Assembly (NCBI GenBank): GCA_964568625.1
Contig: CAZMQG010000002.1
Location: forward strand, 9,237-73,236
Direction of reading: 5' to 3'
DNA from: an uncultured Pseudomonadota bacterium
GTDB taxonomy: Bacteria; Babelota; Babeliae; Babelales; RVW-14
DNA: 64,000 bases
Positions 22,416 through 53,100 of the stretch are shown here, one piece after another. A program made the translations under genes and the position numbers. Position 1 is the stretch's first letter; the number at the start of each line of letters is the position of its first letter. Under the pieces are notes generated by a model. The model worked only from the letters and a program-made list of their open reading frames with translations, was not told the DNA's origin and did not search any database.

Positions 22416-22862
22416 ATGAAAATGAAATTGAGTAAGGCTTTTACAATGATGGAGATGATGGTTGTTCTTCTTATCATTGGATTTATTGCTGCAATGGTTA
22501 TTCCACAAGTTACAAAATATATGCAGAGAGCTGGTGAATCAAAAATGCAGCTTAGGATGTCAACAATTAAATCTGCATTAATGAGCTATCGAATGGATTT
22601 TGGCGTTTATCCTTCTTCTCGCGAGGGCTTACGAGCTTTGATTGAAAATCCAAGAACAAATGATGAAATGTATCGCAAGTTTGAGCGCGAAGGTAGATGG
22701 CCTTATATAGTAGAGGGTGAAAAAGGTATAGCTGACGATAATGGTAATGAATTTATTTATAATAATCCCCCTGAAAAGTTTAAAAATAAGTATCGTTCGT
22801 ATGAGATTATTTGGGTTGGTCGTGGATCTGAAGAAGAGCCTCAAATGGATATCGGGGAATAA
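22416..22862 (+). CDS. gspG: Major pseudopilin GspG-like
   Basis: Class III signal KA|FTMMEMMVV, GVYPSSREGLRAL, DDNGNEFIYNNP. Confidence 0.85.
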   Translation: MKMKLSKAFTMMEMMVVLLIIGFIAAMVIPQVTKYMQRAGESKMQLRMSTIKSALMSYRMDFGVYPSSREGLRALIENPRTNDEMYRKFEREGRWPYIVEGEKGIADDNGNEFIYNNPPEKFKNKYRSYEIIWVGRGSEEEPQMDIGE

Positions 22863-22865
22863 CGA

Positions 22866-34047: not shown

Positions 34048-34068
34048 AAAATTCGGGGAAATAAGAAC

Positions 34069-37000
34069 ATGACAATAAAAAAAAATCTACTTGGCTTTGT
34101 AGTAACTTTTTTGGTTATTCCACACACCTTGTTTCCTTCTTCTATAGATGGGACTACTTCAGTAAAATATCTTACGAAAAATCAGGTTTTTAGAGATGGA
34201 GAATACGCGCGAGGTTATGTAAAATTTAAATCAGGAGCAACAATTTTAAGTTCATGTAGTGCATTGTTTAATACGCAGGAACCGCTTGAAGGTGGACTTG
34301 ATTTACGTCAAACGGGAGCACTTAGTCTTGAGGGTCCCATTTATTTTGATTCTAATTTTACACTTTCTGGAAGTGGGATAATTAAGGGTAATGGGAAAAT
34401 AATTTTTTTGAATGGAAATTTGACCATTCCGGATAATTCAATAATTCATGTAAATTCAAATACAATAATTGACGGGCAGGGTAAAAATTTGATTTTTGGA
34501 AAACGGGGGAGAATTTTTGTTGATACAAATATTACATTAACGCTTCGTAATATGAAGATTGTTCAAACTTATAACGATTTTTCCGATCCGTGTATCAGGC
34601 TTGCGGCTCTAAGAAGTAATCTTACTCTTGATAATGTTGAATTGTCTTTGTTTCAAGATTTCTTATTCCCTGAAGGGCAACTCTTTATTCATGGCGATGT
34701 TGCCGTAACTGGAACTTCGGCCTTTATTTTTCAGTCTACTCAGCATACATTTATCGCTCCAGAAAGTACTTTTTACTTTGATATAGGAACCACATTTTCA
34801 GTTGTGCCTGCAACTATAACCGATTGTGGTTTTGACCAATGGCCTACTTACTCATCAAGTAATTTTGTTGTAATGACAGATGCAACATCAAGGTTATGTT
34901 TGAACGAGGCATCTCTATGTTCCACTCCAACTGGTTCTAGGTTTGCAAAAGGCACCGTAGAATTTGAAAATAAGTGTTTTATAAAAAGCAACAGTGCTAT
35001 TGATTTGCCGTCTCCTTATCTCGTTGATACTCTTCAATATGTACAAACCGGCAACTGGCCAGTTTGTGTGGATTATTCTCCTACCGGAAGTTATGTTGCG
35101 GTTGTAAATAGAACTTCAAATACATTGCAAATCTTTGATTCTGTTACATTGGCTCAAATTGGAAGTGACGTAATCACTGGAAATACACCCGTATATGTTT
35201 CTTGGTCAAATACAAGCACCCAAATTGCTGTTGCAAATTCAGGAGATGATACAGTTAAAGTATATAATTTCAATGGATCTAGTACCCCAACTCTTTCAGC
35301 AAGTGCATCTACAAATTCACAACCATCATGTGTTGCATGGTCACCTTATGGGAAATATATCGCTGTAACAAATTCAGGATCTAATTCTTTACAAGTTTTT
35401 AAATCAGATACACTTGCTCAAATTGGTAGCAATGCAACTACTGACAGCAACCCTTCTGCGGTTTCATGGGCTCCAGGCGATAGGCTTTTGGCTGTAACAA
35501 ATTCGACATCAGATACATTACAACTTTTTTCATTCGATGGGGTTGGCACACCGACACAAATTGCAAATCATGCTACAGATTCTACGCCATCATCCGTTTC
35601 CTGGTCGCAAAATGGAATATTTATATCTGTTGCAAATAAAATTAGCAATTCCACACAAATTTTTGCTTTTGATAGCACATACTCTTTAAATTTAATTGAT
35701 ACCATTCCCACTGATTATACCCCAACATCCATATCATGGTCTAACGATGGACGTTATCTCGCATTTGTTAATTATACCTCCAATAATTTGTGGTATGTAC
35801 CTTTTGTGGATCAAAGTTTACACACTAAAATTGGAAGTGATGTTGATACAGGTCAAGAGTTAACGGGTTTGGCATGGGCGCCTACGGAAGATTATCTTGC
35901 AGTTATATCCAAATGGGGAAGCGCATTGCAAATATATTCATTTGATGGGATAAATTCACCTGTATTGGTTCAAGCTAGCGGATCTCCATCTCCAACGGAT
36001 ATTGCGTGGTCTCCAACAGGAACATTTATTGCCGTATCTACAGATTACAATGGGAATGTTTACATATATTCGTTCGCGTCGGGGGTTTTGACTTACCGAA
36101 ATTCTTATGCAATTTCTGGTGTTACGCCTCAATCAGTATCATGGTCTCCATCCGGCGACTATTTTGCGGTAAGTGCATCCGATAGTAAATTATACATATT
36201 TTATTTCAATAAAATATCTTATGCATTAACTCTTGTTGGTAATACAAGCACAGCATCTTCATCTATTAATTCTGTATCTTGGTCTGCGCAAGAAGAGTTT
36301 ATTGCCTTGGCGGGTGGGTCCTCGGGTACATTGCAGATTTTTTCATTTACGGGTTCTAACCCCGTATTAGTTGGCAGTGTAAGTACTGGATCTAATTTGG
36401 AATCAGTGTCCTGGGCGCCAACAGGAGACTATCTCGCTGTTGCTGATTCAGGGTTTCCATCAAAACTGGAAATATTTTCATTCAATGGTTCAAATCCCGT
36501 TTTGATAAATAGTGTTAATGCAGCTCAGTGGATAAATTCAGTATCTTGGTCGCCTGATGGTAGATTTATAACCGTTTCGGATAGATATGCTTACATATTA
36601 CAAACATTTTCATTTAGTAGAAATGGAGATTTAATTCAGGTTGGTGATAATGTAGGCACCGGGTCAGGTTCTGAGCCACAAGTAGTTGCATGGTCTCCTC
36701 AAGGTAAGTTTGTTGCTGAAGTTAACTATTGGACAAAAACATTAGAAGTATTTTCATTAACGCAAGCCTCTGCTAAATTAGATGTCAGTAAAAAAATTAC
36801 TACCAACGTTAAACCTACCTCATTATCATGGTCACCAAATAATACAAATATTGCAGTTACTTCCAGAGACTCTAACGAACTACAAATATTCGAACTTGAA
36901 TATCCATCATTACTAAATCAAATTGGCGGAGGTGCTACAACCGGACTTCGTCCTACATCTGTATCATGGTCTCCTGACAGTAGATTTATTTCTTTAGTGA

Positions 37001-38073
37001 ACACTTATTCCAGTTCAATACAAGTGTTCTCATTTAATGGAAATGATTCCCCTATGTTAATTGATACAAAAACAACATTAACTGGGCCAAGTGGTGTTCA
37101 GGGCGTTTGGCCAACTGCAGCAGCATGGTCACCTGTTGGTAATTTTATTACCATAACAGCGGAAGGGAATCCTGTTCCATACCAGGGAAGTTCTTTGCAA
37201 GTTTTTGGATTTAATGGAGTTGATTCGCTAACAAGATTGGTAACTAAAGTATTCCCTTCAGAAACTCCAATAGGTGGGCTGGCTTGGTCTCCCGATGGCA
37301 GATTTTTTGCAATAGATACTTACGGGAGTATGATGAAAGTATATTCATTTAACGGAATTGATAATATTACTCAAGTTGGTAGCGATTTAATTTTAGGAGT
37401 TATCTATCCGGGAGCAATATCATGGTCACCGGACGGAAGATTTATTTCAATTGCAGCTCCAAATCTTTATTTGGGTAATGTATTTCAGATATATTCATTT
37501 GATGGAGTCAATACCCCAACAAAAGTTGGAAATGATGTTTCAACAGGAACATCACCGGCATCAGCAACTTGGTCTCCGGATGGAAGATTTATCGCCGTAT
37601 GTAACGCTTCATCGAATGAGTTGCAAATATTCTCATTCAATGGAACCGATACTCCCGTCCAAGTTGGGGGAAACGCAACCACTGAAAAAGGACCTTTTGG
37701 TGCGGTGTGGTCTCCATCAGGTAAATTTATTGCCTTAGTTAACTACTATGCTAAATCAATTCAACTATTTTCATTTGATGGAGCTAATACTCCAATATTA
37801 GTTGGAACAAGCTCAATAAACAACAATTCGAGTTCAATCTCCTGGTCGCCTGATGGGAAATTTATTGCGGTTGCTGAAGATGTTTCAGGAACCAATGGCA
37901 ATCTCAAAATATTTAAAATAAATCTTACCGCTGACAGAACTTTGCAAGCTATTTCAAATGGAGTTGTATTTGGAAATTCAAATATTGGGGCTACTTATGA
38001 CGCTACGGTTAAACTTTTAGCTGGGGCGAGTGTTAATGTAGATGGACTTGTAAATTATGATTGCGTCAATTAA
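34069..38073 (+). CDS. Secreted scaffold plus WD40-like propeller protein, 21 blades (array member 2)
   Basis: Same N-terminal domain, 21 counted repeats, ends NYDCVN. Confidence 0.85.
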   Translation: MTIKKNLLGFVVTFLVIPHTLFPSSIDGTTSVKYLTKNQVFRDGEYARGYVKFKSGATILSSCSALFNTQEPLEGGLDLRQTGALSLEGPIYFDSNFTLSGSGIIKGNGKIIFLNGNLTIPDNSIIHVNSNTIIDGQGKNLIFGKRGRIFVDTNITLTLRNMKIVQTYNDFSDPCIRLAALRSNLTLDNVELSLFQDFLFPEGQLFIHGDVAVTGTSAFIFQSTQHTFIAPESTFYFDIGTTFSVVPATITDCGFDQWPTYSSSNFVVMTDATSRLCLNEASLCSTPTGSRFAKGTVEFENKCFIKSNSAIDLPSPYLVDTLQYVQTGNWPVCVDYSPTGSYVAVVNRTSNTLQIFDSVTLAQIGSDVITGNTPVYVSWSNTSTQIAVANSGDDTVKVYNFNGSSTPTLSASASTNSQPSCVAWSPYGKYIAVTNSGSNSLQVFKSDTLAQIGSNATTDSNPSAVSWAPGDRLLAVTNSTSDTLQLFSFDGVGTPTQIANHATDSTPSSVSWSQNGIFISVANKISNSTQIFAFDSTYSLNLIDTIPTDYTPTSISWSNDGRYLAFVNYTSNNLWYVPFVDQSLHTKIGSDVDTGQELTGLAWAPTEDYLAVISKWGSALQIYSFDGINSPVLVQASGSPSPTDIAWSPTGTFIAVSTDYNGNVYIYSFASGVLTYRNSYAISGVTPQSVSWSPSGDYFAVSASDSKLYIFYFNKISYALTLVGNTSTASSSINSVSWSAQEEFIALAGGSSGTLQIFSFTGSNPVLVGSVSTGSNLESVSWAPTGDYLAVADSGFPSKLEIFSFNGSNPVLINSVNAAQWINSVSWSPDGRFITVSDRYAYILQTFSFSRNGDLIQVGDNVGTGSGSEPQVVAWSPQGKFVAEVNYWTKTLEVFSLTQASAKLDVSKKITTNVKPTSLSWSPNNTNIAVTSRDSNELQIFELEYPSLLNQIGGGATTGLRPTSVSWSPDSRFISLVNTYSSSIQVFSFNGNDSPMLIDTKTTLTGPSGVQGVWPTAAAWSPVGNFITITAEGNPVPYQGSSLQVFGFNGVDSLTRLVTKVFPSETPIGGLAWSPDGRFFAIDTYGSMMKVYSFNGIDNITQVGSDLILGVIYPGAISWSPDGRFISIAAPNLYLGNVFQIYSFDGVNTPTKVGNDVSTGTSPASATWSPDGRFIAVCNASSNELQIFSFNGTDTPVQVGGNATTEKGPFGAVWSPSGKFIALVNYYAKSIQLFSFDGANTPILVGTSSINNNSSSISWSPDGKFIAVAEDVSGTNGNLKIFKINLTADRTLQAISNGVVFGNSNIGATYDATVKLLAGASVNVDGLVNYDCVN

Positions 38074-38089
38074 AAAGAGCAGGAGAGGT

Positions 38090-41000
38090 ATGAAGCTATC
38101 AACTTTTTCATTATATTTTATTATTGTTTTCTTATTTTTTTCAAATTATGCACGTGCCTCTTCCATTGATGGGACAACATCACCGAAATATCTGACTACA
38201 AATCAGGTTTTTCATAATAATCAATATGCACGAGGATATGTAACTCTTAATTCCGGGGCAACAATTTTAAGTGATGCCACTGCATTTTTAAATATAAATA
38301 CGCCATTGAAAGGTGGGCTTGACTTACGTTCAACAGGAACTCTTAGTCTTGAGGGGGATCTTTATCTTGACACAAATTTTACGCTGTCCGGTAGTGGTGT
38401 AATAAGGGGAAATGGTAAAACTATTTTTATGAATGGGAACTTAACAATTCCGGACAACTCTGTAATTCATATAAATTCCAATTCGATAATAGATGGGCAA
38501 GGGCATGATCTTGTTTTTGGACGAAGAGGAAGAATTTTTGTCGATACAAATATTACTTTGACATTGCGTAATATGAAAATTGTTCAAAATTATAATGATT
38601 TTTCAGATCCATGTGTTCGGTTAGCTTCGTTCAAAAGTCAGTTGGCATTGAATGATGTTGAGTTTGCATTATCGCAGGATTTTTTATTTAATCAAGGTGA
38701 ATTATTCATTCATGGCGATGTAACAGTAACGGGAACTTCTGCGTTTATTTATCAATCTACTCAACATAGTTTTATAGCTTCGGATAGTATTTTTTATTTT
38801 GATAAAGCAACTACTTTTTCGGTTATTCCTGCTACTTTTACCGATTGTATGTTTGATCAATGGCCAACATATACGTCAAACCGTTTTATTGTAATGACAG
38901 ACCAAACATCAAGATTATTATTTAATGAAGCTTCACTTTGTTCAACTTCTACCGGGTGCAGGTTTGCAAAAGGTGTTGTGAATTTTGCAAATAATTGTAA
39001 CATAAAAAGCAACAGTGCGCTTGATTTGCCTCAAGCCTATATTGCAGATACAGGTGTAAATATTCAAACTGGAAGGTTGCCAGCCTATGTTGCATATTCT
39101 CCTAATGGAAATTATCTTGCTATTGTTAATAAACAGTCAAATACATTACAAATTTTTGATTCAGTTTCGCATGCACAGATTGGAAGCGATGTAATTTCGG
39201 GAAGTTTACCAGTTGCAGTTTCTTGGTCAAATACTAGTACGCAGCTTGCAGTTGTTAACTCTGGTGATAATACAGTAAAAGTATTTAATTTTAACGGATT
39301 AAGTATTCCTACTCTTTCTGTAAGCAAATTTACAGGTGCTAATCCCTCATGCGTTGCCTGGTCTTTGTATGGAAATTATATTGCCGTGACTAACGCAGGT
39401 TCTAATACTGTGCAAATTTTTAAGGCGTCGACGCTGTCTCAGGTTGGTAGTAGCGTTGTTACTGGCAGTATTCCATCATCTGTGACATGGGCTACTGGAG
39501 ATAGGTTTTTAGCAGTAACAAATATGGGATCAAATACGTTGCAAATATTTTCATTCAACGGATCAAGTACTCCAGTGCTGGCTGCAAGTAATGCTACAGG
39601 AGTTACTCCTTCATCGGTTTCATGGGCACAAAATGGTTTGTTTTTATCAGTTGCTAATAAAGACTCCAATACATTGCAAATATTTTCTTTTGATAAAAAT
39701 CATGCATTAGCTTTGATTGATACGGTTTCCTCTAATTATGAACCAATTGCTACCACGTGGACGCCCGATGGAAGTTATATTGGAGTTTCAGATCATTATT
39801 CCCAAAAAGTACAATTTTTAAGATTTTATAATCAGAGCTTGTTGTCTCAAGTTGGCGGCAATGCTACGACTGGAAGTCACCCTTACCAAGTATCATGGTC
39901 TTCTGATGGACTATTTTTAGCAGTTGTTAATGATGACTCAAATACTTTGCAGATATTTTCATTTAACGGTTCTAGTACACCTCTATTAGTTGCTTCCTCT
40001 GCAACAGGGATGTTCCCTTGGACTGTTTCTTGGTCACCATCTTTACCATCGCCAAATTATTTTCTTACTGTTGCTAATATGGGGTCAAGTTTGCAAGTGT
40101 TTTCATTCGATGGAGTGAGTACAATTACTTCGCTTGCAACGCAAGCTGTAATAGATATTTCGGCTGCATCATGGTCGCCTGTAGGTAATTTTATTGCAGC
40201 GGTTAAGCGGGATACAACAAATACACTTGCAGTATTTCATTTTGACGGAATTAGTACATTAACGCAGGTTGGGATTGATGTAGGAGCTGGAGATAATCCA
40301 TGGGCAGTGTCATGGTCGCCTGCAGGTAATTTTATTGCGGTAGTTAGCCTTTATGATAGCTTATTGCATATATTTTCATTTAATGGATCTAGTTCTCCAG
40401 TTCCAATTGCAAGCACTGCTACCGCTTCTAGTAGAAGTCCGGCCGCATGGTCTCCAGATGGAAACTTTATTGCTGTGGCAGGAAGAATTGCCCCACTTAC
40501 AGGAGTGCTACAAATTTTTAATTTTAACGGATCAGCATTTGGATCCTCTTATACAACAATTACACGAAAGCATATGATTTCTGAAACAGCAGTTTCATGG
40601 ACAAGTGATGGACGATTTATTGCGGTTGGAACAGAGTTAAGTGAGCCTGATAGTAGTACAAATATTCCGGGTATATTACAAATATTTTCTTTTAACGGAT
40701 ATAGTGAGGCAACAGAAGTTTGTTCTAGCGTTGTTGCAGGAAAGACACCAAGATTTGTATCTTGGGATCCAACCGGAAAATTTGTTGCTGTTATTAATGA
40801 GGAATCGAATACATTGCAAGTGTTTTCAATGGATGTGTATTTTGATTTGTCTCAGGCAAGCAAAAACGTTTTCACTCAAAGTAACCCTTTTTCGATAAGT
40901 TGTTCTTCTTCTGATGGATATGTTGCCGTTACCAATGGTAATTCAGATAATGTTCAATTGTTTCAATTACAATATCCTGCAATATTGACTCAAGTTGGTA

Positions 41001-42109
41001 GTGATTTGCCATTTGGCGAAGGGGTATATGAGAACCCATATTCGGTATCATGGTCTTCTGATGATAGATTTCTCTCTGTGGTTTCTTGGAATTATTTGAA
41101 GGCTTATTCATTTAACGGATTGTCAACGCCTACGCAGGTTGGATCTGCTTTAAATTGGAGTGGCAAAAATGTGTCCGTTTCATGGTCTCCATCGGGTCCA
41201 TATATTGGTTCCGTCAGAGCAGTTAATGAATCGATTGATATATTTTTGTTTGATGAAATTACAGGCCCAACTACATATGCTTTTGGATGTAGTACAGATA
41301 ATTATCCAAATTCACTATCCTGGGCTCCATCAGGTAATTTTGTTGCTGTAGCTAATCGTGATTCAGATACATTACAAGTCTTTTCATTTGATGGACTTAA
41401 TACTGTTATTTTTGGACGGACTAGACCTATTTTAGTTAGTTCAATTACAACAGGCTCTGAGCCAACATCTGTTTCGTGGTCATCTGACGGAAGATTTATT
41501 GCTGTTGTTAATGGTGGTGCTAATACATTGCAGGTATTTTCATTTAACGGTGTTAATACAACAACTTTAATTGGTGGAAGTGTGTCAACTGGATCTACGC
41601 CGACGTCAGTTTCATGGTCGCCGGATGGAAGATTTATTGCAGTCTTGAATAATGGGACAAATACACTTCAGGTTTTTTCGTTTAATGGGGCTAGTACTCC
41701 GGTACAAATTGGTGTAAGTGCTAGAACTGATAATTCTCCAAATTCGTTGTCATGGTCGGTAGATGGTAATTTTATTACAGTTGTAAATGGTGATTCAAAT
41801 ACGTTACAAGTATTTTTATTTAATGGAGCTAGTACTCCAGTACTGGTAGATGAAATAGGAGCAGGAAGAGGCCCAATATCGGTTTCATGGTCTCATTCAG
41901 GTAATTTTATTGCTGTAGCAAATTATACTGCACAGACATTGCAAGTATTTCGGGTAAACTATGTACCAAATATTTCTGAACAGGCTATATCAAATGGGGT
42001 AGTATTTGGCAATTCAAATCTTGGTTCAGATTATGATGCAACTGTTAGGCTTTTGGCAGGAAGCAATGTTATGGTGGATGGCTTAGTAAATTATGATTGT
42101 GTTATTTAA
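38090..42109 (+). CDS. Secreted scaffold plus WD40-like propeller protein, 21 blades (array member 3)
   Basis: Start moved to ATG 38090 (AGGAGAGG RBS); 21 counted repeats; ends NYDCVI. Confidence 0.85.
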   Translation: MKLSTFSLYFIIVFLFFSNYARASSIDGTTSPKYLTTNQVFHNNQYARGYVTLNSGATILSDATAFLNINTPLKGGLDLRSTGTLSLEGDLYLDTNFTLSGSGVIRGNGKTIFMNGNLTIPDNSVIHINSNSIIDGQGHDLVFGRRGRIFVDTNITLTLRNMKIVQNYNDFSDPCVRLASFKSQLALNDVEFALSQDFLFNQGELFIHGDVTVTGTSAFIYQSTQHSFIASDSIFYFDKATTFSVIPATFTDCMFDQWPTYTSNRFIVMTDQTSRLLFNEASLCSTSTGCRFAKGVVNFANNCNIKSNSALDLPQAYIADTGVNIQTGRLPAYVAYSPNGNYLAIVNKQSNTLQIFDSVSHAQIGSDVISGSLPVAVSWSNTSTQLAVVNSGDNTVKVFNFNGLSIPTLSVSKFTGANPSCVAWSLYGNYIAVTNAGSNTVQIFKASTLSQVGSSVVTGSIPSSVTWATGDRFLAVTNMGSNTLQIFSFNGSSTPVLAASNATGVTPSSVSWAQNGLFLSVANKDSNTLQIFSFDKNHALALIDTVSSNYEPIATTWTPDGSYIGVSDHYSQKVQFLRFYNQSLLSQVGGNATTGSHPYQVSWSSDGLFLAVVNDDSNTLQIFSFNGSSTPLLVASSATGMFPWTVSWSPSLPSPNYFLTVANMGSSLQVFSFDGVSTITSLATQAVIDISAASWSPVGNFIAAVKRDTTNTLAVFHFDGISTLTQVGIDVGAGDNPWAVSWSPAGNFIAVVSLYDSLLHIFSFNGSSSPVPIASTATASSRSPAAWSPDGNFIAVAGRIAPLTGVLQIFNFNGSAFGSSYTTITRKHMISETAVSWTSDGRFIAVGTELSEPDSSTNIPGILQIFSFNGYSEATEVCSSVVAGKTPRFVSWDPTGKFVAVINEESNTLQVFSMDVYFDLSQASKNVFTQSNPFSISCSSSDGYVAVTNGNSDNVQLFQLQYPAILTQVGSDLPFGEGVYENPYSVSWSSDDRFLSVVSWNYLKAYSFNGLSTPTQVGSALNWSGKNVSVSWSPSGPYIGSVRAVNESIDIFLFDEITGPTTYAFGCSTDNYPNSLSWAPSGNFVAVANRDSDTLQVFSFDGLNTVIFGRTRPILVSSITTGSEPTSVSWSSDGRFIAVVNGGANTLQVFSFNGVNTTTLIGGSVSTGSTPTSVSWSPDGRFIAVLNNGTNTLQVFSFNGASTPVQIGVSARTDNSPNSLSWSVDGNFITVVNGDSNTLQVFLFNGASTPVLVDEIGAGRGPISVSWSHSGNFIAVANYTAQTLQVFRVNYVPNISEQAISNGVVFGNSNLGSDYDATVRLLAGSNVMVDGLVNYDCVI

Positions 42110-42141
42110 AAAGGGTAGGGAACCGATATAGGAAGAGAGCA

Positions 42142-45100
42142 ATGAAAATACCAAAAATAGTTTTTTATTTTACAATTGGACTGCTGTTTATTACCAAAAA
42201 TCTTGCGCCGGCTTCTATTGATGGAACAACTTCGGTTAAGTATTTAACGACAAATCAAGTTTTTCATAATAATCAATATGCGCGAGGATATGTAACGCTT
42301 AATTCAGGAGCAACAATTTTAAGTGATGCCACTGCATTTTTAAATATAAAAACACCATTTTCAGGTGGCCTTGATTTGCGTGAAACAGGAACGCTTAGTC
42401 TTGAGGGTGACCTTTACCTTGATTCTAATGTTACTCTTTCAAGAAGTGGAGTAATAAGGGGAAATGGAAAAACCATATTTTTAAATGGAAATTTAACAAT
42501 TCCGGATAATTCAATTATCCACATAAATTCAGACACCATAATTAATGGCCAAGGAAATGAGTTAGTATTTGGAAAAAGAGGAAGGATTTTTGTTGACACA
42601 AATATTACTCTGACACTGCGTAATATTAAACTTATTCAAACGTTCAACGATTTTTCTGATCCATTCATCAGGCTTGCAGCGTTTGAAAGCAATCTTGTTC
42701 TAGATAGCGTTGAAATGGCATTATCACAAGATTTCTTATTTCCCGAGGGCCAACTTTTTATTCATGGTGATGTTGCGGTTACCGGAACTTCTGCCTTTAT
42801 ATACGAATCGACACAGCATACTTTTATAGCACCTGATAGTACTTTTTATTTTGATATAGGAACAACTTTTTCTGTCACGCCTGCAACGATAACCGATTGT
42901 AGATTTGATCAGTGGCCCACTTATACGTCAAATAACTTTATTCGAATGCAAGATAAAACATCAAGCTTATATTTTAATCAAGCCACTCTTTGTACTACTT
43001 CCACGGGATCTAGATTTACAAAGGGTACGGTGGTTTTTGATAACAAGTGTTTATTGAGCAGCACCAGGGCTCTTGATTTGCCAGGAGTGTATATAGGAAA
43101 TTCGGGCCAAAGCATTCAAACTGGAATGTTGCCGAATAGCATAGCCTTTTCGCCTGATGGAGATTATATTGCTGTTGTAAACAAAAGTTCAAATACTTTG
43201 CAAATTTTTAATTCAACTACGCCATTTGCACAGGTTGGTCTTGATGTCATAACAGGAGATTCCCCCATTGCTGTTTCGTGGTCAAATACAAGTACTCAGC
43301 TTGCTGTAGTGAATTTCGGTGACGACACAGTAAAAGTATTTAATTTTGATGGAATTAGCTCCCCTGTATTTTCAGTAAGCAACACAACTGGTTCAAATCC
43401 ATCGTGCGTATCATGGTCTCCATTTGGAAATTACATTGCTGTAACAAATTCAGGCTCCGATACTTTGCAAATTTTTAAGGCATCAACATTGTCTCAGCTC
43501 GGAGGCTTTGCCGCCACTGGAGATACCCCGTCTTCAGTCGCATGGGCTACAGGAGACAAATTTTTGGCTGTTACCAATGCTGGCTCAAATACTCTGCAAA
43601 TATTTTCATTTAATGGCTCTAGTACTCCATCTTTAGAGGCAAGTAGTGCTACTGGGAATATACCGACATCGGTTTCTTGGGATCAGAATGCTTTATTTAT
43701 TGCGGTTGCAAATAGCAACTCAAACACAGTTCAGATTTTCTCATTTGACTGTAGCCATTCACTAAATTTAATGAATACAATTCTTACTAATCTTGGACCG
43801 ATTTCGATAACTTGGACTAGTAGTGGTGGCCAGATAACATTTGTGAATAATATTTCAAATACATTGCAGTTCTCATCGGTTGTAGATCAAAGCGTTCCAA
43901 TTCAGGTTGGGGGTAGTGTGTCTGTTGGGAATTCTCCATATTCAACAGCTTGGTCGCCATCTGGGAATTTTATTGCCGTTGTTAATAGTCAGTCAGACTC
44001 ATTACAGGTATTTTCATTCGATGGTGTTAATACTCCGACTCAAGTTGGGGGTAATGCATCTACGGCACCGGTTCCTTACTCGGTATCATGGTCTCCTGAT
44101 GAATGCTTTATTGCTGTTGTGAACATCAATACGGGCAAATTGCGAATATTTTCGTTTGATGGGATAAATACGCCTGTGCAAGTTGGAGGTGATGCAAGTA
44201 CAGGGGCTTATCCATGGTCAGTATCTTGGTCTCCCATGGGTAATTTTATTGCCGTTGTTAACTGGGCTGATGGCACATTGCAAGTGTTCTCATTTGATGG
44301 GGTTAATACACCTACACAGGTTGGAGGCAATGCGCCTACGGGAAGCCGTCCTGTATCAGTATCATGGTCGACCAATGGGCATTTTATTGCTGTTGCAAAT
44401 GCTATTTCAAATACGTTACAAGTATTCGCATTTGATGGGGCTAATACGCCTACACAGGTTGGAAGTCCAGCAACTACTGCATCAGTTCCGTTCTCAGTAT
44501 CCTGGGCGCCAGATAGTAGATTTGTCGCAGTTGTTAATCACGATTCGTGTGCATTACAGGTATTTGCATTTGATGGAACTAGTACGCCAGTACAAGTTGG
44601 GGGTGATGCAATTACAGGCAGTTCACCATTCTCTTGGCCAATGTCCGGATCATGGTCGTCTGATGGGCGGTTTATTGCGGTTGCTAATTACAACACCGAT
44701 TCGTTGCAAATATTTTCATTTAATGGATTTGGTACGCCGACACAAGTTGGTGGATCGGTGGCTACGGGATCATATCCTAAATCAGTAGCATGGTCACCGG
44801 CAAGCGATTTCATGGCAGTGATTAACGAGTCATCGAATACATTGCAAGTTTTTTCGCTTAATGTTGCTAGTGCATCAACACAGGTTGCGGGAACCATAAA
44901 AACTCAAACGAAACCATCATCAGTGTCATGTTCCCCAAATTCTGGCGCTGTGATTGTTTCTGGTGGTGAAAATACACTACAACTTTTTGAATATTTACAA
45001 CCATCGGTATCAGCTCAAGTTGGGGGTAATGTAACTACGGGAAGCTTTCCAGACTCAGTATCATGGGCTCCCGATGGAAGATTTGTTGCAGTTGTTAATG

Positions 45101-46113
45101 ATTCCTCAAACACGTTGCAAGTATTTTCATTCAATGGTTCTAGTGCTCCGACACAAGTTGGAGGTAATGCAAATACCGGAAGTAGGCCTGCGTCAGTATC
45201 ATGGTCACCAGATGGAAGATTTATTGCTGTTGTTAGCTATTTATCAAACAGGTTACAGGTCTTTTCTTTTGATGGTGTAAATACGCCTAGTCAAGTTGGG
45301 GCTAACGTATCTACTGGAAATGAGCCATGGTCCGTATCATGGTCACGAGGTGGAAAATTCATTTCTGTTGTTAACAGACAGGCTGGTACGCTGCAGATAT
45401 TCACATTTGATGGAATTCATACTCCAACTCAGGTTGGCAGTAACGTGGATGCCGGCTATTATCCATGGGCAGTATCATGGTCGCCTGAGGGAAGTTTTAT
45501 TGCAGTTGCTAACTTCGAAGGAAATACTTTAAGAGTATTTACATTTGATGGAATTCATACCCCAACTCAAGTTGGCAATGCTGCGTTTGCGGGATCTTAT
45601 CCATGTGTAGCGTCGTGGTCTTCGGATGGTAGATTTATTGCTGTCATTAATAGATTTTCAAATACATTGAGAGTGTTCTCGTTTAATGGCTTTGATACTC
45701 CAGTACAAGTGGGAGGTGGTGCATCAACTGAATCTGGGCCAAATGTCGCGGCATGGCTTCCTGATGGCAAGTTTATTTTTGTCGTTAACTATTCCTCAAA
45801 TACATTAGAAATATTCTCATTTGATGGATCTAGTACGCCGGTCAAGGTCGGTGGAAGCGTTTCTACTGCTAATTATCCAATGTCAGCATCATGTTCGTCC
45901 GATGGGAAATTTATTGCTGTTGTCAGTGGTAATCTAAATGTTCTGCAATTATTCAGAATTAACTATGTTTCAGAAAGATCTGCTCAATCAATTTTGAACG
46001 GAGTTGTGTTTGGAGATTCTGCGTTTGGTTTCGAGTATGACGCAGATGTGCAAGTTCTTGCGGGTTCGCATGTGCTTGTGGATGGAAAAGTAAATTATGA
46101 TTGTGTAAATTAA
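42142..46113 (+). CDS. Secreted scaffold plus WD40-like propeller protein, 21 blades (array member 4)
   Basis: Start moved to ATG 42142; 21 counted repeats; ends NYDCVN. Confidence 0.85.
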   Translation: MKIPKIVFYFTIGLLFITKNLAPASIDGTTSVKYLTTNQVFHNNQYARGYVTLNSGATILSDATAFLNIKTPFSGGLDLRETGTLSLEGDLYLDSNVTLSRSGVIRGNGKTIFLNGNLTIPDNSIIHINSDTIINGQGNELVFGKRGRIFVDTNITLTLRNIKLIQTFNDFSDPFIRLAAFESNLVLDSVEMALSQDFLFPEGQLFIHGDVAVTGTSAFIYESTQHTFIAPDSTFYFDIGTTFSVTPATITDCRFDQWPTYTSNNFIRMQDKTSSLYFNQATLCTTSTGSRFTKGTVVFDNKCLLSSTRALDLPGVYIGNSGQSIQTGMLPNSIAFSPDGDYIAVVNKSSNTLQIFNSTTPFAQVGLDVITGDSPIAVSWSNTSTQLAVVNFGDDTVKVFNFDGISSPVFSVSNTTGSNPSCVSWSPFGNYIAVTNSGSDTLQIFKASTLSQLGGFAATGDTPSSVAWATGDKFLAVTNAGSNTLQIFSFNGSSTPSLEASSATGNIPTSVSWDQNALFIAVANSNSNTVQIFSFDCSHSLNLMNTILTNLGPISITWTSSGGQITFVNNISNTLQFSSVVDQSVPIQVGGSVSVGNSPYSTAWSPSGNFIAVVNSQSDSLQVFSFDGVNTPTQVGGNASTAPVPYSVSWSPDECFIAVVNINTGKLRIFSFDGINTPVQVGGDASTGAYPWSVSWSPMGNFIAVVNWADGTLQVFSFDGVNTPTQVGGNAPTGSRPVSVSWSTNGHFIAVANAISNTLQVFAFDGANTPTQVGSPATTASVPFSVSWAPDSRFVAVVNHDSCALQVFAFDGTSTPVQVGGDAITGSSPFSWPMSGSWSSDGRFIAVANYNTDSLQIFSFNGFGTPTQVGGSVATGSYPKSVAWSPASDFMAVINESSNTLQVFSLNVASASTQVAGTIKTQTKPSSVSCSPNSGAVIVSGGENTLQLFEYLQPSVSAQVGGNVTTGSFPDSVSWAPDGRFVAVVNDSSNTLQVFSFNGSSAPTQVGGNANTGSRPASVSWSPDGRFIAVVSYLSNRLQVFSFDGVNTPSQVGANVSTGNEPWSVSWSRGGKFISVVNRQAGTLQIFTFDGIHTPTQVGSNVDAGYYPWAVSWSPEGSFIAVANFEGNTLRVFTFDGIHTPTQVGNAAFAGSYPCVASWSSDGRFIAVINRFSNTLRVFSFNGFDTPVQVGGGASTESGPNVAAWLPDGKFIFVVNYSSNTLEIFSFDGSSTPVKVGGSVSTANYPMSASCSSDGKFIAVVSGNLNVLQLFRINYVSERSAQSILNGVVFGDSAFGFEYDADVQVLAGSHVLVDGKVNYDCVN

Positions 46114-46136: not shown

Positions 46137-49100
46137 ATGAGGTTTAGATTTTTTTTGTTTTGGATTATTTTTTCTGTCACAACTTTTGTTGAGGGGATTT
46201 TTGCGGCATCCATCGACGGCACAACATCAGTCAAGTATCTCACAACAAATCAGGTTTTTGGAAATAATCAATATGCACGAGGATTTGTTTCTTTTAATTC
46301 CGGTGCAACAATTTTGAACAATGCAACTGCATTTTTTAATGTTAAGATGCCATTTTCAGGAGGACTTGACCTCCGTGGAACCGGCACGCTGAGCCTTGAG
46401 GGCGATCTTCATCTAGATTCCAATTTCACGCTCTCCCCAAGTGGCGGAGTAATAAGAGGAAACGGTAAGACAATTTTTATGAACGGGAATTTAACAGTTC
46501 CTGATAATTCCATAATTCACATAAATTCGGATACAATAATTGATGGCCAAGGTAAAGATCTTATCTTTGGAAGAAGAGGTAGAATTTTTGTTGATACAAA
46601 TATCACTCTCACGTTGCGTAATATGAAAATTATACAGAGTTATAACGACTTCTCTGATCCATGCATGAGATTGGCAGCATTCCAGAGCAAACTTGCTCTG
46701 GATAATACTGAGCTGGCATTATCCCAAGACTTTTTATTTTCACAAGGACAGCTTTTTATTCACGGAGATGTGGCGGTTACAGGAACGTCTGCCTTTATAT
46801 ACGAATCGACACAGCATACTTTTATAGCACCTGATAGCACTTTTTATTTTGATATAGGAACAACATTTTCAGTTACACCTGCAACTTTTACTGACTGCAA
46901 ATTTGATCAATGGCCAACAACTACGACAAATAATTTTATTTTAATGACTGATGAAACTTCAAAAATACATTTTAATGAGGCTTCTCTTTTTGCAACTTCT
47001 ACTGGGTGTGGATTTACGAAGGGGGCTGTAAATTTTGAAAATCAGTGTTTTATCAAAAGCAATCAGTCACTAGATTTACCAACAACACATATTGGTAATG
47101 CTATTGGTGAGATAGCCACAGAATTTTCACCAAGTTGCGTGGCCTGGTCTCCTGACGGTAATTTTCTTGCTGTGGTAAATAAAAATTCGGATTCATTACA
47201 GATCTTTGATTCTGTTACCTTGGCTCAAATCGGTAGTAGTGCCGCTACTGGGAGTGGGAGCGCGCCAGTATCCGTTTCTTGGTCAAATACAAGCACGCAG
47301 TTGGCCGTAGCAAATTCAGGAGATAACACGCTTAAAGTGTTTAATTTTAATGGTTCTGTTACCCCAACCTTGTCAGTGAGTACTGCTACCGAAATTTCGC
47401 CTTCATGTTGTTCTTGGTCTTCATATGGCAAATTTATCGCGGTAACAAATTCAGGATCTGATACTTTGCAAATTTTTAAATCTGATACGCTTGCGCAAAT
47501 TGGAAGTAATGCAACGACCGGAGATGCACCTTCATCTGTCTCATGGGCTCCCGGTGATGGGTATTTGGCTGTTGTAAATTTTATTTCAAATACATTACAA
47601 ATTTTTTCATTTGATTATTTTAATACTCCAACTTTAATTGCAAGTCATGTTACGGGCTTTTCTCCTTCCTCAGTTTCGTGGTCAAAAATGGGAGCTTTTA
47701 TAGCATTAGTAAACAAAAGCTCAAACACTCTGCAAATGTTTTCATTTGATGTAAATAAGACGTTAGCTTTAATTAATACATTCCCTACAAATAATGAGCC
47801 ATCTTGTGTGTCTTGGACGTTGGATGGAAAGTATGTTTTTGTTGTTAATTATACTTCTAATACGCTACAATTATTCTCATTATATGATTTGACTAGCACT
47901 GGCTATTTAGGAGGGATTGGGACAGGCACTGAGCCGGTATCAGTGTCATGGGCTCCATTGAGTGATTTTGTTGCTGTTGCTAATAAGACATCAGGAACGA
48001 TTCAGATTTTTTCCGTTAATGGATCAGGAACCCCGACTCTTACAGGAAGTGTTGCTGCAGGGACTAATCCAACGTCAGTGTCATGGTCGCCAGTGAGTAA
48101 CTATGTTGCTGTAGTCAATGATACCTCACCAGGTACATTACAAGTTTTCTCGGTTATTGCGGGCGTTCCAGCGCTTACAGGTTCGATTTCAACAGGTACA
48201 AATCCTCAATCTGTGTCATGGGACCCAACGGGTAATTTTATAGCTGTTGTTAATGGTGCTTCTGGTATATTGGAGGTATTTAATTTTGTTGCCCCAGGAA
48301 CTTTAGCTCTTGCTGGTAGCATCTTAATTGGCGTTGGAACCAGCCCGAGATCGGTAGACTGGTCAGCTGTTGGTAATTTTATAGCTGTGGTTAATAGTGC
48401 TACAAGTAAGCTTAACGTATTTCATTTTGACGGTAGCAGCACAATTACAAAGATTGGTGGTGATGCATCCACAGATAGTTCTCCATATTCAGTTTCTTGG
48501 TCCCCTGATGGAAGTTTTATTGCTGTAGTTAGTTATGATTCGGGAGCTTTGCAGATTTTTTCATTTGATGGATACAGCACCCCGACTCAGGTGGGTGGAA
48601 ATGCTTCTATTGGGGAGCTTTATGCCTATTCCGTGTCATGGTCACCTGATGGCAGGTTTATTGCTGTGAGTTATTATTGGCCTGATACACTTCAAGTATT
48701 TTCTTTTAATGGGTCAGATACTCCAACTAGACAGGGAGGCAGTGCAACAACTGGTAGGATGCCAGCTTCAGTATCATGGTCATATGATTCTGAGTTTATA
48801 GCTGTGGTTAATAGTAGTATACCTGCTGGTAATTCATTACAAATATTTAAGTTAAATTCTGATGGATTAGCTACTCAAATTAATCAGGGTGTTGCTACCA
48901 AAAATAGACCATCTTCTCTTTCATGTTCTCCAGCAGGAACGGCTGCAATTGTTGCGAATACTGGCTCAAATATGCTTCAAATTTTTAATATTCAATATCC
49001 AGATATATTGACTCAAATTGGAAGTGGTGCATCCACTGGGCTTAGCACCCAACCAGTTGCTATGTCATGGTCTCCGGATGGTAGATTTGTAGCTTCGATT

Positions 49101-50129
49101 AATTATGGTTGGGGAGAATTAAAAATATTTTCATTTAACGGTTCAAGCACGCCAACACAAGTTGGCATCGATGTAAATACTGGAGCTGAAGCTTTTTCAG
49201 TTTCGTGGTCACCTGATGGTAGATTTATTGCTGTGACTCATATGTCTTCAAAAATATTGCAAATATATTCATTTAATGGGTATAGCACTCCTGTACAGGT
49301 GGGTGGTAATGCAAGTACAAATGGCTGGGCACGTTCAGTGTCATGGTCGCCTGATGGTAAGTTTATTGCTGTTGTGAGTCGTAGTACCAGTGTTTTACAA
49401 ATATTTTCGTTTGATGGATTTAGTACGCCAGTTCAAGTTGGAGGTAATGCTCCAACTGGTTGGTTGCCAGTTTCAGTTTCGTGGTCGCCGGATGGAAGAT
49501 TTATTGCTTTAGCCAGTTATGGAAATAGCATATTGCAAGTATTCTCGTTTAATGGTTTAAGTACTCCTGTTCAGATTGGTAACAATGTAGGTACTGGGAC
49601 TTATCCAAGCTCAGTGTGTTGGTCACCTGATGGAAGGTTTATAGCTACAGTTAGCGCAGAGGAAGATATATTAAAAGTGTTTTCATTTAATGGGACAAGT
49701 ACTCCAAATAGATTGGGGGATGGGGCTTATACAGATAGTGGTCCTAGTTCGTTATCATGGTCACCAGATGGTAGATTTATTACTGTGGTTAATGCAACTG
49801 CAAATACGTTACAAGTTTTTTCATTTGATGGGGTTTATAATCCAACACAAATTGGTAGTAGTATAAGCCTTGGGGGAATTGGATGGAGTGTTGATTGGTC
49901 CAAGGATGGGGAATTTATAGCCGCTACATATGAAGGTATATTTCCAGATACATCTGCATTAAAAGTGTTCAAGCTAAATTATGGTGTTGATGCATCAGGC
50001 CAAGCAATTTCAAACGGTGTAGTATTTGGTAATTCAAAGCTTGGGTTAAATTATGATGCAACAGTTAAACTTTTGGCAGGAAGTAATGTTATGGTAGATG
50101 GTTTGGTAAATTACGATTGTGTTGTTTAA
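46137..50129 (+). CDS. Secreted scaffold plus WD40-like propeller protein, 21 blades (array member 5)
   Basis: Start moved to ATG 46137; 21 counted repeats; ends NYDCVV. Confidence 0.85.
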   Translation: MRFRFFLFWIIFSVTTFVEGIFAASIDGTTSVKYLTTNQVFGNNQYARGFVSFNSGATILNNATAFFNVKMPFSGGLDLRGTGTLSLEGDLHLDSNFTLSPSGGVIRGNGKTIFMNGNLTVPDNSIIHINSDTIIDGQGKDLIFGRRGRIFVDTNITLTLRNMKIIQSYNDFSDPCMRLAAFQSKLALDNTELALSQDFLFSQGQLFIHGDVAVTGTSAFIYESTQHTFIAPDSTFYFDIGTTFSVTPATFTDCKFDQWPTTTTNNFILMTDETSKIHFNEASLFATSTGCGFTKGAVNFENQCFIKSNQSLDLPTTHIGNAIGEIATEFSPSCVAWSPDGNFLAVVNKNSDSLQIFDSVTLAQIGSSAATGSGSAPVSVSWSNTSTQLAVANSGDNTLKVFNFNGSVTPTLSVSTATEISPSCCSWSSYGKFIAVTNSGSDTLQIFKSDTLAQIGSNATTGDAPSSVSWAPGDGYLAVVNFISNTLQIFSFDYFNTPTLIASHVTGFSPSSVSWSKMGAFIALVNKSSNTLQMFSFDVNKTLALINTFPTNNEPSCVSWTLDGKYVFVVNYTSNTLQLFSLYDLTSTGYLGGIGTGTEPVSVSWAPLSDFVAVANKTSGTIQIFSVNGSGTPTLTGSVAAGTNPTSVSWSPVSNYVAVVNDTSPGTLQVFSVIAGVPALTGSISTGTNPQSVSWDPTGNFIAVVNGASGILEVFNFVAPGTLALAGSILIGVGTSPRSVDWSAVGNFIAVVNSATSKLNVFHFDGSSTITKIGGDASTDSSPYSVSWSPDGSFIAVVSYDSGALQIFSFDGYSTPTQVGGNASIGELYAYSVSWSPDGRFIAVSYYWPDTLQVFSFNGSDTPTRQGGSATTGRMPASVSWSYDSEFIAVVNSSIPAGNSLQIFKLNSDGLATQINQGVATKNRPSSLSCSPAGTAAIVANTGSNMLQIFNIQYPDILTQIGSGASTGLSTQPVAMSWSPDGRFVASINYGWGELKIFSFNGSSTPTQVGIDVNTGAEAFSVSWSPDGRFIAVTHMSSKILQIYSFNGYSTPVQVGGNASTNGWARSVSWSPDGKFIAVVSRSTSVLQIFSFDGFSTPVQVGGNAPTGWLPVSVSWSPDGRFIALASYGNSILQVFSFNGLSTPVQIGNNVGTGTYPSSVCWSPDGRFIATVSAEEDILKVFSFNGTSTPNRLGDGAYTDSGPSSLSWSPDGRFITVVNATANTLQVFSFDGVYNPTQIGSSISLGGIGWSVDWSKDGEFIAATYEGIFPDTSALKVFKLNYGVDASGQAISNGVVFGNSKLGLNYDATVKLLAGSNVMVDGLVNYDCVV

Positions 50130-50168: not shown

Positions 50169-53100
50169 ATGAAAATATCCAAGTTAATAGCAATGTGTGG
50201 TTGCTTTTTTGCATTGGAGAATGCTAATGCGACGTTAAGCTTTTCGAACGATTTGTCTAAGTTTATACTACTTAATGATGCTTCAGAAATTCGAATAAAA
50301 AGCACAGGAATTTATGATAATCAGGATCTTGGAATAACGAATAATTTAAATAAAATTGATTTAGTGAATTCAACTAACAATGTCATAATCATGGATAGTA
50401 ACTTTGAACTTGCAGAAGGTTTTTTATCTAGCGAGACGTGCACCGTTCAGGGTAATGGATATTCAATGATTATGAATGGTGATTTAACAATTCCTGAAAT
50501 GACTACTCTAAAAATTACATCAAGTTTGTTAATAGAAGGCAATGGCCACACGCTATTTATTGATAACTTTGCTCAGATTTTAACAGATACACATGCAACG
50601 TTGACGTTAAGAAATTTGATTCTTAGAAATTCTACAAATACGTCTGAACGGCCGGCAATTGAGGCAAATGGTTCTGATTCTAGAATTACGTTTGATGGTG
50701 TAGAGATTAAATTTAATGATGATTTTTGGTTTAAGCGTGGAAGTCTATTTTTTAACAACAATGTTTTATATTCAGGGGGTTCAAAATTTCTTTATGGTTC
50801 TGCTCAGCCAAGTTACATTATGCCAAATAGTACCCTATTATTTGATAAGGGTACGACCTTCTTTTATAACCCTTCAACTACAAGTAATGAGTTAATTGTA
50901 CAACAGGATCCGACTTCTACGATTTATTTTGATGGAGCAACTCTTCAAACGACTCCAACCGGTCTAAGTTTGGTAAATGGTCAAATGTTTTTTGAAAACC
51001 AAATTAATTTTGATGTTGGAACGGAGTTTAACACGAGTGTATTCAGATTAAATCAAGTCGCTAGTAGTTTAGTTTTGCGTTCTTTGGATTGGGATTTTAG
51101 CGGACAATATTTGGCTGTTGCCGGACAAACAATTGGATTAAATACTAATCAAATAAAAATATATCAATTGAACTCAACAAATTTATCTCAACTGGATGCA
51201 GTGACATATGGGCCACTGTCTTCTTCTGTAAATTCAGCGGTTTGGAGTTCAGATGGGCAATATTTAGCTGTTGGCGGTTCTGGGGCAGGTATTGCAGGTG
51301 GATTTAGTAATAATGATAGTTTAAGAATTTATTATTTAAATCCGGCCACACTTACTTTAAATCCTGTTGCAAGTGTTGATTTTGGAAGTACCTCAACAAT
51401 CAAAACAATTGATTGGGGTGGCCTTGATAATCGTTATCTTGCGATTGGTGGAACAGGAGCTCTTCCTGTTGGTGGATTCGGCAATAATGATAATTTAAGA
51501 ATTTATTATTTTGATGCATTTCAAAATAAATTGAATCCTGTTACAAGTTACAATTTTGGCTCTAGCGTAAATTCAGCACAATGGGATTTTAGTGGATCCT
51601 ATTTGGCTGTGGGTGGATTTCAAACATCAGGAAGTTGTAGGTTGAATCTTTTTACTTTCAATCCTGTTACTAATTCTTTGAATTTGTTTGATAATAAAAA
51701 TTTTGGAGTAACTAGTGATACTTCTATTAATTCTATTGCTTGGACTAGCGAAAGCCAGTTTTTGGCTGTAGGAGGCGGAAGTTACAGCAACGCTATGACA
51801 TCTACTCAAAATTTGATTATATATCAATTTAATCCATCCAATCCTATACCCCTTTCATTTTTAACCTCTGCAAATTCGGTAGAAACCACAAGTACCAGTT
51901 ACATTCAAATTCAAAATTTGAAATGGAGCTCAAACAATCAACTATTGCTTTCCAGTGGTTTAAACCCGGTATCAGGAAATTGGTCTAGCGATATATATGT
52001 TTTTGACTCAAGTTCCAATATAAAGTTAAGTGAATTAAAACAAATGAGTCACGCAAGTGCGTTAGTGCAGTATGCTGCTGCGTGGAATCCTAATACAAAT
52101 TTGTTTGTTACAAGTTCAGACAATTTTATAAATGTTAATTCTTTGGTAGGTTTAAGCCCTAAGCTTGTTTCTAATAAAGATTACACAAATTATTATTCTA
52201 CATTATCCACTGGAACAGATGGTGTTTACTCTATTGATTGGCACCCAGGAGGAGACTACTTGGCAGTTGTGGGGCAAAGTGCTGGAGCTGTTGGTGGTTT
52301 TAGCAATTCAGATGAAATAAGAATTTATCGTTTTGGTGGAGGAACTGAGTCTTTGCATGCTGCTACAAGCCGTCGTTATGGACAAAGGGTTTGTGCTGCA
52401 TCTTGGCGCCCTGACGGGGATTATTTGGCTGTTGGCGGTATTAATCCTACTTACGCAGCCGGTGGATTTAATAATACTGACCAGGTTAGAGTATATAAAT
52501 TTGTAAATAATTCTCTGTCCCCAGAAATAAGTGTCTCTTTAGGATCAAGTTCTGCAGAACTTTACAGTATGGCATGGCACCCAAGTGGAAGATATCTGGC
52601 TTTAGGTTGCTATAATTCAGAGGCCGTTGGGGGATTTCTTGCCGGAGTGAATTTAAGAATTTATTCATTTGATGGAACAATATTAACCCCAATTGTAGGT
52701 TATAATTTTGGTTCTGCCACTCGTACGCCCGCGGGAATGCATTGGAGCCCTGATGGCAAATATTTGGCTGTTGGAACATGTGATGGGCGCCCAACTTCAG
52801 AGCCTGCAACCGGTAACGGGTTGAGAATATTTGAATTTCAAAACGATAACAGCCTGGTTTCAAGAGCAACCTGGAATACATCAGGGGCTGTGTTGAGCGT
52901 AAATTGGGAATTTGACAACAGATATATTGCCGTAACATACAATAATACAACGTTTAAGATTCTTTATTTTACCGGTAGCTCGGTTCAAGAGGTGAAATCG
53001 TGGGGCGATGCCAACTTCAAAAATACGGATGTAAAATTTAGTCCCGATGGTAAGAAGATAGCTTATACTGCAAAAAATGGTGCTTCAAATAATTTTGGGT

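Follow-up and report, generated by a model that had tools for sequence, protein, structure and literature searches.

We analysed a 64-kb stretch of DNA, called the window here, in which six consecutive paralogous genes (m1 to m6) encode large proteins on the + strand between positions 29143 and 53393. The fourth gene, m4, holds a region, 43900-45930, that a preliminary description had taken for a nearly fixed beta-propeller framework with hypervariable, aromatic-rich loop positions, in the manner of a library of binding proteins. The observation is real: in blades 7-21 of m4, encoded by this region, variable positions surround a conserved proline and follow a FIAVV motif. The pattern holds up statistically and recurs throughout the family. 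The best-supported reading, to which we give a little better than an even chance, is that the distal propellers of m4 and its paralogs are diversified binding heads.

A hidden Markov model of the blade was built and all 112 blades of m1-m5 were aligned over the 46 columns of the blade consensus (QVGGnasTGs.P.SVSWSPDGrFIAVVN..sNTLQVFSFdG..TPT). Per-column entropy was highest at columns 11 (3.67 bits), 13 (3.54 bits), 29 (3.53 bits), 10 (3.51 bits) and 30 (3.29 bits), referred to below as the hot columns. Columns 10, 11 and 13 flank the conserved Pro12, two before it and one after, and columns 29 and 30 come after FIAVVN28, where a second variable site had indeed been proposed. Columns 13, 29 and 11 also headed the entropy ranking among 474 blades taken from 47 homologous proteins in other metagenomes, with Tyr as the most frequent residue at 13 and 29. 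The framework is less uniform than the words 'nearly fixed' implied, the mean pairwise identity of m4 blades 7-21 being 0.51 overall and 0.66 in the core strands, as compared with 0.12 in the hot columns.

The triplets centred on Pro12 read LPN, SPI, NPS, TPS, IPT and GPI in m4 blades 1-6, SPY, VPY, YPW, RPV, VPF, SPM (with an FSWP insert), YPK and KPS in blades 7-14, and FPD, RPA, EPW, YPW, YPC, GPN and YPM in blades 15-21. Every triplet quoted in the preliminary description is present, but the non-aromatic distal ones (RPV, KPS, RPA and GPN) had been omitted from it. The strings at the second site include NWAD (blade 9), NHDS (blade 11), SYLS (blade 16), NFEG (blade 18) and NRFS (blade 19). 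At columns 11, 13 and 29 of m4, aromatic residues (Tyr, Trp or Phe) occupied 17 of 45 distal positions (38%) as compared with 1 of 18 proximal ones (Fisher p=0.013), which upholds for m4 the contrast noted earlier between distal and proximal blades. The same counts pooled over m1-m5 were 57/242 and 7/90 (p=9e-4) and, among distal blades, these three columns were aromatic in 24% of cases, against 3.6% for control variable columns (p=2e-16), all these Fisher tests being approximate because blades have a common ancestry. Taken by member, the contrast was significant in m4, the most aromatic of them, and marginal in m3. The residues of the distal hot columns ranked in the order Y, S, N, R/T, G, A/W, a composition resembling that of known binding surfaces.

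We then assigned the hot columns to a face of the propeller from the secondary structure of the AlphaFold2 (AF2) model, as defined by DSSP, and from the topology of the four-strand meander. Strand A spans columns 12-17, strand B columns 23-28 and strand C columns 33-38, whereas strand D starts at column 46 and continues into the following blade. Columns 10, 11 and 13 form the end of the D-A loop and the opening of strand A, and columns 29 and 30 open the B-C loop. The connections of a four-strand meander alternate between two faces, D-A and B-C sharing one of them and A-B and C-D the other. The model therefore places all five hot columns on the same face, the 'top' face by WD40 convention, rather than scattering them over the propeller. 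WD40 proteins bind their partners through the top-face hotspots R1-2, R1 and D-1 (PMC3419727), which are topological counterparts of columns 10/11/13 and 29/30.

The protein that carries these blades starts, in all likelihood, at the ATG at 42142. The open reading frame (ORF) delimited mechanically begins at a TTG at 42097 (42097-46113), and aa 602-1278 of this ORF, that is, blades 7-21 of 21, correspond to 43900-45930. From the ATG, m4 (42142-46113, + strand) counts 1323 aa, and the homologues in a close strain, strain B (GCA_000315315.2, contig AMWB02009348.1, in an assembly of >9000 contigs), begin at the equivalent Met. A putative Sec-type signal peptide, MKIPKIVFYFTIGLLFITKNLAPA (42142-42213, +), would be cleaved before SIDGTT; a Sec-type signal peptide was recognized in each of m1-m5, and SIDGTTS at the start of the mature protein is common to all paralogs. 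The signal peptide is followed, all on the + strand, by a conserved N-terminal domain of ~300 aa (N-domain; 42214-43101), propeller 1 (blades 1-7; 43105-44040), propeller 2 (blades 8-14; 44041-45015), propeller 3 (blades 15-21; 45016-45975) and a conserved C-terminal tail of ~45 aa (45976-46110; ...NGVVFG...VDGKVNYDCVN). The top-face positions that are variable and aromatic-rich are those of propellers 2 and 3. The number of blades is exactly 21 in each of m2-m5 and 28 in m1. A 7+7+7 split of the m4 blades would best account for their number, for the divergence of blades 14 and 21, for a linker at aa 923-930 with a low predicted local distance difference test score (pLDDT) and for the superposition of propeller 1 on seven-bladed structures, but 6+8+7 would be compatible too. 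In m1-m5, the constant part thus consists of the N-domain, propeller 1 and the tail, and the variable part of propellers 2 and 3, two variable propellers (three in m1) lying between propeller 1 and the tail. Two further observations concern the distal blades of m4: the GC content at 44001-46000 rises up to 0.43, as compared with ~0.35 for the window, and a 201-aa ORF at 44183-44788, on the same strand as m4 and in another frame, is probably a by-product of the repeats.

The AF2 models showed seven-bladed, four-stranded propellers, with a pLDDT of 84.4 for m4 blades 7-21 and of 74 for the N-domain with propeller 1. Propeller 1 could be superposed on the seven-bladed propellers of G-beta and WDR5 with template modelling (TM) scores of 0.7-0.85 (target-normalised; ~0.75 for G-beta) and a root-mean-square deviation of ~2.5 Å. 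In Foldseek searches, the best match to the model of blades 7-21 was 2ymu, a highly repetitive double propeller, and the model of the N-domain with propeller 1 was matched mostly in its propeller part. The solved fold closest to propeller 1 was 1l0q, an archaeal S-layer YVTN propeller (E=3e-15, 21% identity), which was also matched in sequence by propeller 3 in a phmmer search (E=7e-11); the YVTN repeat model was absent from the NCBIfam output at E<=1e-3. PF10282 (Lactonase) was the top Pfam match for m1-m5, reaching 242 bits in m4 against a cut-off of 21.7 (E=1e-71). The WD40 family PF00400 summed to 51.7 bits over m4, with all single stretches below threshold. Identity with the canonical WD40 repeat was considered and rejected, the blade consensus having neither GH nor WD and its Trp ending strand A. 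These blades are accordingly of the lactonase/YVTN type, and the label 'WD40' used in the preliminary description is correct for the fold class and wrong for the family.

That the propellers might be lactonase-type catalysts was considered in view of PF10282 being the top Pfam match, and of the solved proteins nearest by sequence, which, besides 1l0q, are lactonase-family propellers (the gluconolactonase PpgL and putative 6-phosphogluconolactonases). The lactonase propellers E. coli YbhE (1ri6) and PpgL (6igb) share with the array blades a Pro before strand A, the SPDG motif, a hydrophobic strand, an Asn and a polar turn. Yet an enzymatic role is very improbable. The NCBIfam 6-phosphogluconolactonase models scored only 65-68 bits against cut-offs of 370-500, and no NCBIfam model reached its cut-off. 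Lactonases are enzymes built of one propeller, with a top-face pocket that is conserved, whereas the positions that would line this pocket in m4 are the most variable of the protein. Furthermore, two to three non-identical propellers per protein, in a set of six paralogs, are not what one would expect of such a catalyst.

Comparison of m2 with a 68%-identical ortholog from another metagenome-assembled genome (MAG) allowed us to separate the top face from the rest of the propeller. Identity amounted to 0.91 in the N-domain, and in propeller 1 to 0.84 for the core and 0.67 for the hot columns. In the distal blades, the core (0.62) and the loops of the opposite face (0.64) were equally conserved, and the hot columns fell to 0.25. 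The variability therefore exceeds the general tendency of loops to vary, since the opposite-face loops match the core while the hot columns drop. Among the paralogs, blades 1-5 kept their positional correspondence, with identities of 0.70-0.81 in the framework and of 0.20-0.50 in the hot columns; in blades 6-21, hot-column identity was 0.04-0.24, which is near random. Propeller 1 is thus conserved across paralogs and propellers 2 and 3 have diverged, most of their change sitting on one face.

The rates of change pointed in the same direction. Between strains, the ratio of non-synonymous to synonymous change (omega), computed according to Nei-Gojobori on the m1, m2 and m3 orthologs of strain B, was 0.33 in the hot columns, 0.13 in the framework and 0.10 in the opposite-face loops (Fisher p=0.027 for the contrast in non-synonymous and synonymous counts). 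In 14 independent pairs of sister blades, it was 0.76 in the hot columns as compared with 0.29 and 0.21 elsewhere. Since the proportion of synonymous differences is 0.35-0.7 even in the closest blade pairs, the blade-versus-blade value can be read as a pooled estimate only. The hot columns hence change 2.5-4 times faster than the rest, approaching the neutral rate. The predicted excess of non-synonymous change is therefore there in relative terms, though omega at no point rises above 1. Concerted evolution of the distal blades was not seen, similarity within a gene being no greater than between genes.

An omega below 1 in the hot columns means that relaxed constraint alone could yield the variability. 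Top-face positions would then drift because they are structurally unimportant, and the propellers would serve as a scaffold or spacer without a specific ligand. Besides the omega values, the fact that loops in general evolve faster than strands is in favour of this explanation, which we consider unlikely for several reasons. The opposite-face loops of m2 are as conserved as its core; the hot columns of propeller 1 are conserved as well; and drift would predict neither the share of Tyr, Trp and Phe in the hot columns (24%, as compared with 3.6% in other variable columns) nor the predominance of Tyr at columns 13 and 29 throughout the family.

The proposal that the distal propellers are diversified binding heads, which the preliminary description had already put forward, draws its support from the single variable face and its composition, from the comparison of m2 with its ortholog, from the raised omega of the hot columns and from the replacement of alleles and the mosaic at the locus (see below). 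Several results weigh against it. Hot-column omega does not exceed 1 in either comparison, and synonymous sites between blades are near saturation (dS ~0.8), so that, with few sequences in addition, tests of positive selection are weak. The aromatic contrast does not reach significance in m1, m2 or m5 taken singly; m5, for which the same contrast as in m4 had been claimed, displays the trend (11/45 versus 2/18) at p=0.32. Finally, the predicted TM score (pTM) of the AF2 model was 0.54, which makes the arrangement of its domains tentative.

This pTM would also fit an internal interface: propellers 2 and 3 would use their aromatic top faces to contact one another, the N-domain or the tail, or a second subunit, and the faces would co-vary for this reason. 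Aromatic patches often mark interfaces. In addition, the tail, conserved at the ends of m1-m5 (NGVVFG...VDGLVNYDCV, ending in NYDCV), and the second half of the N-domain both had a pLDDT of ~30 when modelled apart, the tail being unstructured in its model, as if they needed a partner. Conserved cysteines are present in the N-domain (TDC and NKC) and in the tail (YDC), which hints that the tail may dock back on the N-domain. An interface would, however, be expected to be conserved between orthologs, whereas the hot columns of m2 retain 25% identity against 62% for the core, and every allele would require simultaneous compensating changes. We therefore hold this explanation to be quite unlikely.

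The array proteins belong to a large family. A profile search with the N-domain in 1.84 billion representative proteins retrieved 1818 clusters, 406 of them at E<=1e-30. Most members are ~650-750 aa long and consist of a signal peptide, the domain at residues ~25-320 and then a single propeller; the array proteins share this order of signal peptide, ~300-aa N-domain and propeller(s). As the common form has a single propeller, the triple and quadruple propellers of the array look like an elaboration in which propellers were added behind the conserved propeller 1. Up to 12 copies of the N-domain occur in one protein of 4562 aa. Searches of Pfam, NCBIfam and the PDB (by sequence and by profile) gave no significant match to the N-domain, the only hits being left-handed beta-helices at insignificant scores. 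Short periodic strands, modelled confidently, make up its first 170 residues, so that its first half is predicted to be solenoid-like. All named homologues, including the named N-domain matches, come from 'candidate division TM6' or 'Candidatus Babeliales' MAGs, which assigns the array to the Dependentiae, a widespread and mostly uncultured phylum. In one Babeliales MAG, a syntenic but shorter array has an m6-like gene as its last member. As to m4 itself, its best protein match elsewhere, at 57% identity, is the ortholog of m3, and a scan of the genome collection yielded one Babeliales MAG locus, at 56%. The m4 region is present on contigs of at least 8 wastewater and sludge metagenomes, in several of which the sequence of the window recurs identically; no polymorphism of m4 was found among the contigs compared from these metagenomes, which were either identical to the window or paralogs that cross-mapped.

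Comparison with strain B, whose array proteins were found on two contigs, indicated that the locus is a mosaic. Between the two strains, dS was 0.09 for m1, 0.12 for m2 and 0.05 for m3, as compared with 0.38-0.78 for flanking genes and m6. The latter, with a dS of 0.63 and an omega of 0.05, is under strong purifying selection, unlike m1-m5. In 300-bp windows, tracts of 99-100% identity extend over ~31100-33200, 34700-36200 and 37400-41900 in a background of 88-91%. These near-identical tracts within 29300-41900 (m1-m3) point to recent recombination between lineages, restricted to the propeller array within the 32 kb compared. By contrast, the segment 43300-49995 (+ strand), which takes in the bulk of m4 and almost the whole of m5, has no orthologous counterpart in strain B (strain-B stretches L002 14022-17981 and L001 14053-17991). 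Strain B has instead an additional gene, bX, between m2 and m3, as well as a single gene, bY, which starts like m4, ends like m5 and has a propeller body ~53-55% identical to that of any member in the window. The window haplotype was tiled without differences by 4-9 kb contigs from an independent run, at even depth, and the mosaic is therefore no scaffolding artefact on the side of the window. The simplest reading of these sequences would be recent homologous recombination between lineages, including the swap of whole propeller bodies.

A diversity-generating retroelement was considered as the source of the variability and rejected. None of the ORFs scanned across the 64 kb of the window showed a reverse-transcriptase domain, nor is a reverse transcriptase on record among the orthologous genes of strain B, which argues that such an element does not generate the variability; the closest blade pair is, besides, only 85% identical in nucleotides. 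This pair belongs to blades 24-27 of m1 (33151-33776), which result from a recent tandem amplification of a 138-bp blade unit. The hot columns of these young blades are still small polar residues (NPN, SPS).

Replacement of alleles and recombination between strains are typical of surface antigens and, like the tandem arrangement of the genes and the resemblance of propeller 1 to the S-layer propeller 1l0q, would agree with a role in escape: the proteins would form an S-layer-like surface coat, the face of which varies to evade host factors or phages. This explanation appears rather improbable to us. It leaves the composition, rich in aromatic residues and arginine, unaccounted for, and neither lattice formation nor a surface location is in evidence. 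In addition, the eukaryotic hosts on which Dependentiae are inferred to depend are thought to be protists (PMC4776705), which have no adaptive immunity.

If the distal propellers are indeed binding heads, the tandem array would represent a repertoire of Sec-exported proteins built on one chassis and differing in their binding faces. Three to five positions per blade of the variable propellers account for what distinguishes one blade, paralog or allele from another, and the top-face hot positions, enriched in Tyr, Trp, Phe and Arg, would form a ring on each propeller. Ligand binding would be the most likely function, its specificity differing from one paralog or allele to the next, and the ligand would probably be a protein or glycan of the host or of the environment. 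New specificities could arise through duplication of blades, through near-neutral or adaptive point changes at hot positions, and through homologous recombination in which lineages exchange entire propeller bodies, the flanking homology being provided by the N-domain, propeller 1 and the tail. One may go further and propose a recognition repertoire that is exchangeable. The chassis of the array would serve for anchoring or export as well as for recombination, cassettes of propellers 2 and 3 would be traded between co-occurring Dependentiae lineages, and the aromatic top faces would decide which cells or molecules of the host are engaged, and thereby set host range throughout the phylum. This extension is tentative; we see it as possible but less than probable.

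Known systems resemble the array in part. In repetitive prokaryotic WD40 proteins, the framework is conserved and the predicted hotspot sites are diverse; such proteins are classed as highly repetitive when their internal identity is >=0.7 and as moderately repetitive when it is 0.4-0.7 (Hu et al. 2017, PMC5587647). Like these proteins (2ymu among them), the array has amplified blades within a protein, several propellers per protein and diverse top-face positions. With an identity of 0.51, m4 blades 7-21 fall in the moderately and not in the highly repetitive class, hotspot diversity being present (0.12). The array differs from them, however, by its lactonase/YVTN-type blades, which have no GH...WD or DHSW signature, and by its export signal, uncharacterised N-domain and tandem genes. 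In the fungal het-d/het-e/NWD family, four residues of the interaction surface per repeat are under positive selection and the repeats are reshuffled (PMC1805685). The NOD-like receptor (NLR) proteins HET-D, HET-E and NWD (PMC1805685; PMC2873952) thus have in common with the array a gene family, a propeller whose interaction surface has diversified at a few residues in each repeat, and recombination of repeats or alleles, which in fungi creates new recognition specificities. The array proteins are nonetheless distinct from them: NACHT or STAND domains are missing, the N-domain of m4 having matched nothing in Pfam, NCBIfam or PDB sequences; the repeats show no strong concerted evolution; the hot-column omega of 0.33-0.76 contrasts with the positive selection in fungi; and the fungal proteins are cytoplasmic, whereas those of the array carry a signal peptide. 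The locus works like both systems, yet it is a member of neither.

The third relative, the surface-layer YVTN propeller 1l0q of Methanosarcina mazei, is seven-bladed like propeller 1, and it is extracellular. This archaeal protein combines a single propeller with PKD domains and, to our knowledge, neither a hypervariable face nor a paralog array has been described for it. Within the phylum, 'eukaryotic-like' repeat proteins were reportedly noted in TM6 by McLean in 2013, as cited in PMC4776705. TM6/Dependentiae genomes encode WD40 and other beta-propeller proteins, some of them secreted and proposed to act on the host, according to the relevant passages of PMC4776705 and of Pagnier 2015 (PMC4378268). 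These passages give counts of domains only, and mention no architecture of N-domain and triple propeller, no tandem array, no face-specific variability and no allele exchange.

The other members of the array, all on the + strand, are m1 (29143-34047; ORF of 1634 aa), whose 28 blades make four propellers, m2 (34069-38073; 1334 aa), m3 (38090-42109; 1350 aa), m5 (46137-50129; 1342 aa) and m6 (50169-53393; 1082 aa); the ORF of m4 has 1338 aa. The divergent m6 has an N-domain of the same kind as m1-m5 (36% identity) and a longer, WD40-like blade unlike theirs. Outside the array, on the opposite strand, a small ORF of 265 aa (60863-61660, -) gave weak beta-propeller/WD40-type matches. The window has a low GC content (~35%) and an otherwise ordinary bacterial gene content, which includes genes for BamA/Omp85, a fused double D-Ala-D-Ala ligase, a T2SS-F/PilC-type protein, a pseudopilin, MlaD and MutL. 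The ligase is an 834-aa ORF (15011-17515) in which two complete units are fused in tandem. An outer membrane is implied by the presence of BamA/Omp85, which has POTRA repeats; this gene and the T2SS-F/PilC-type and pseudopilin genes lie at 10816-13308 and 21163-23435, the latter two genes being a few kb upstream of the propeller array.

What is known so far of host recognition and manipulation by Dependentiae amounts to counts of 'eukaryotic-like' repeat domains, and the locus offers a concrete candidate. It belongs to a large, phylum-associated family (>1800 clusters with the N-domain), which in this lineage has gained extra propellers, one face of which varies between blades, paralogs and strains, and has alleles that move between lineages. 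If these faces bind host ligands, they would give a handle on host specificity and a natural propeller-based binding scaffold; if they bind none, they would show cleanly how constraint can be relaxed on a single face of a repeat protein. Should the cassettes of propellers 2 and 3 prove to be traded, and their top faces to select the host, as proposed, the locus would be a determinant of host range for a whole phylum of protist parasites.

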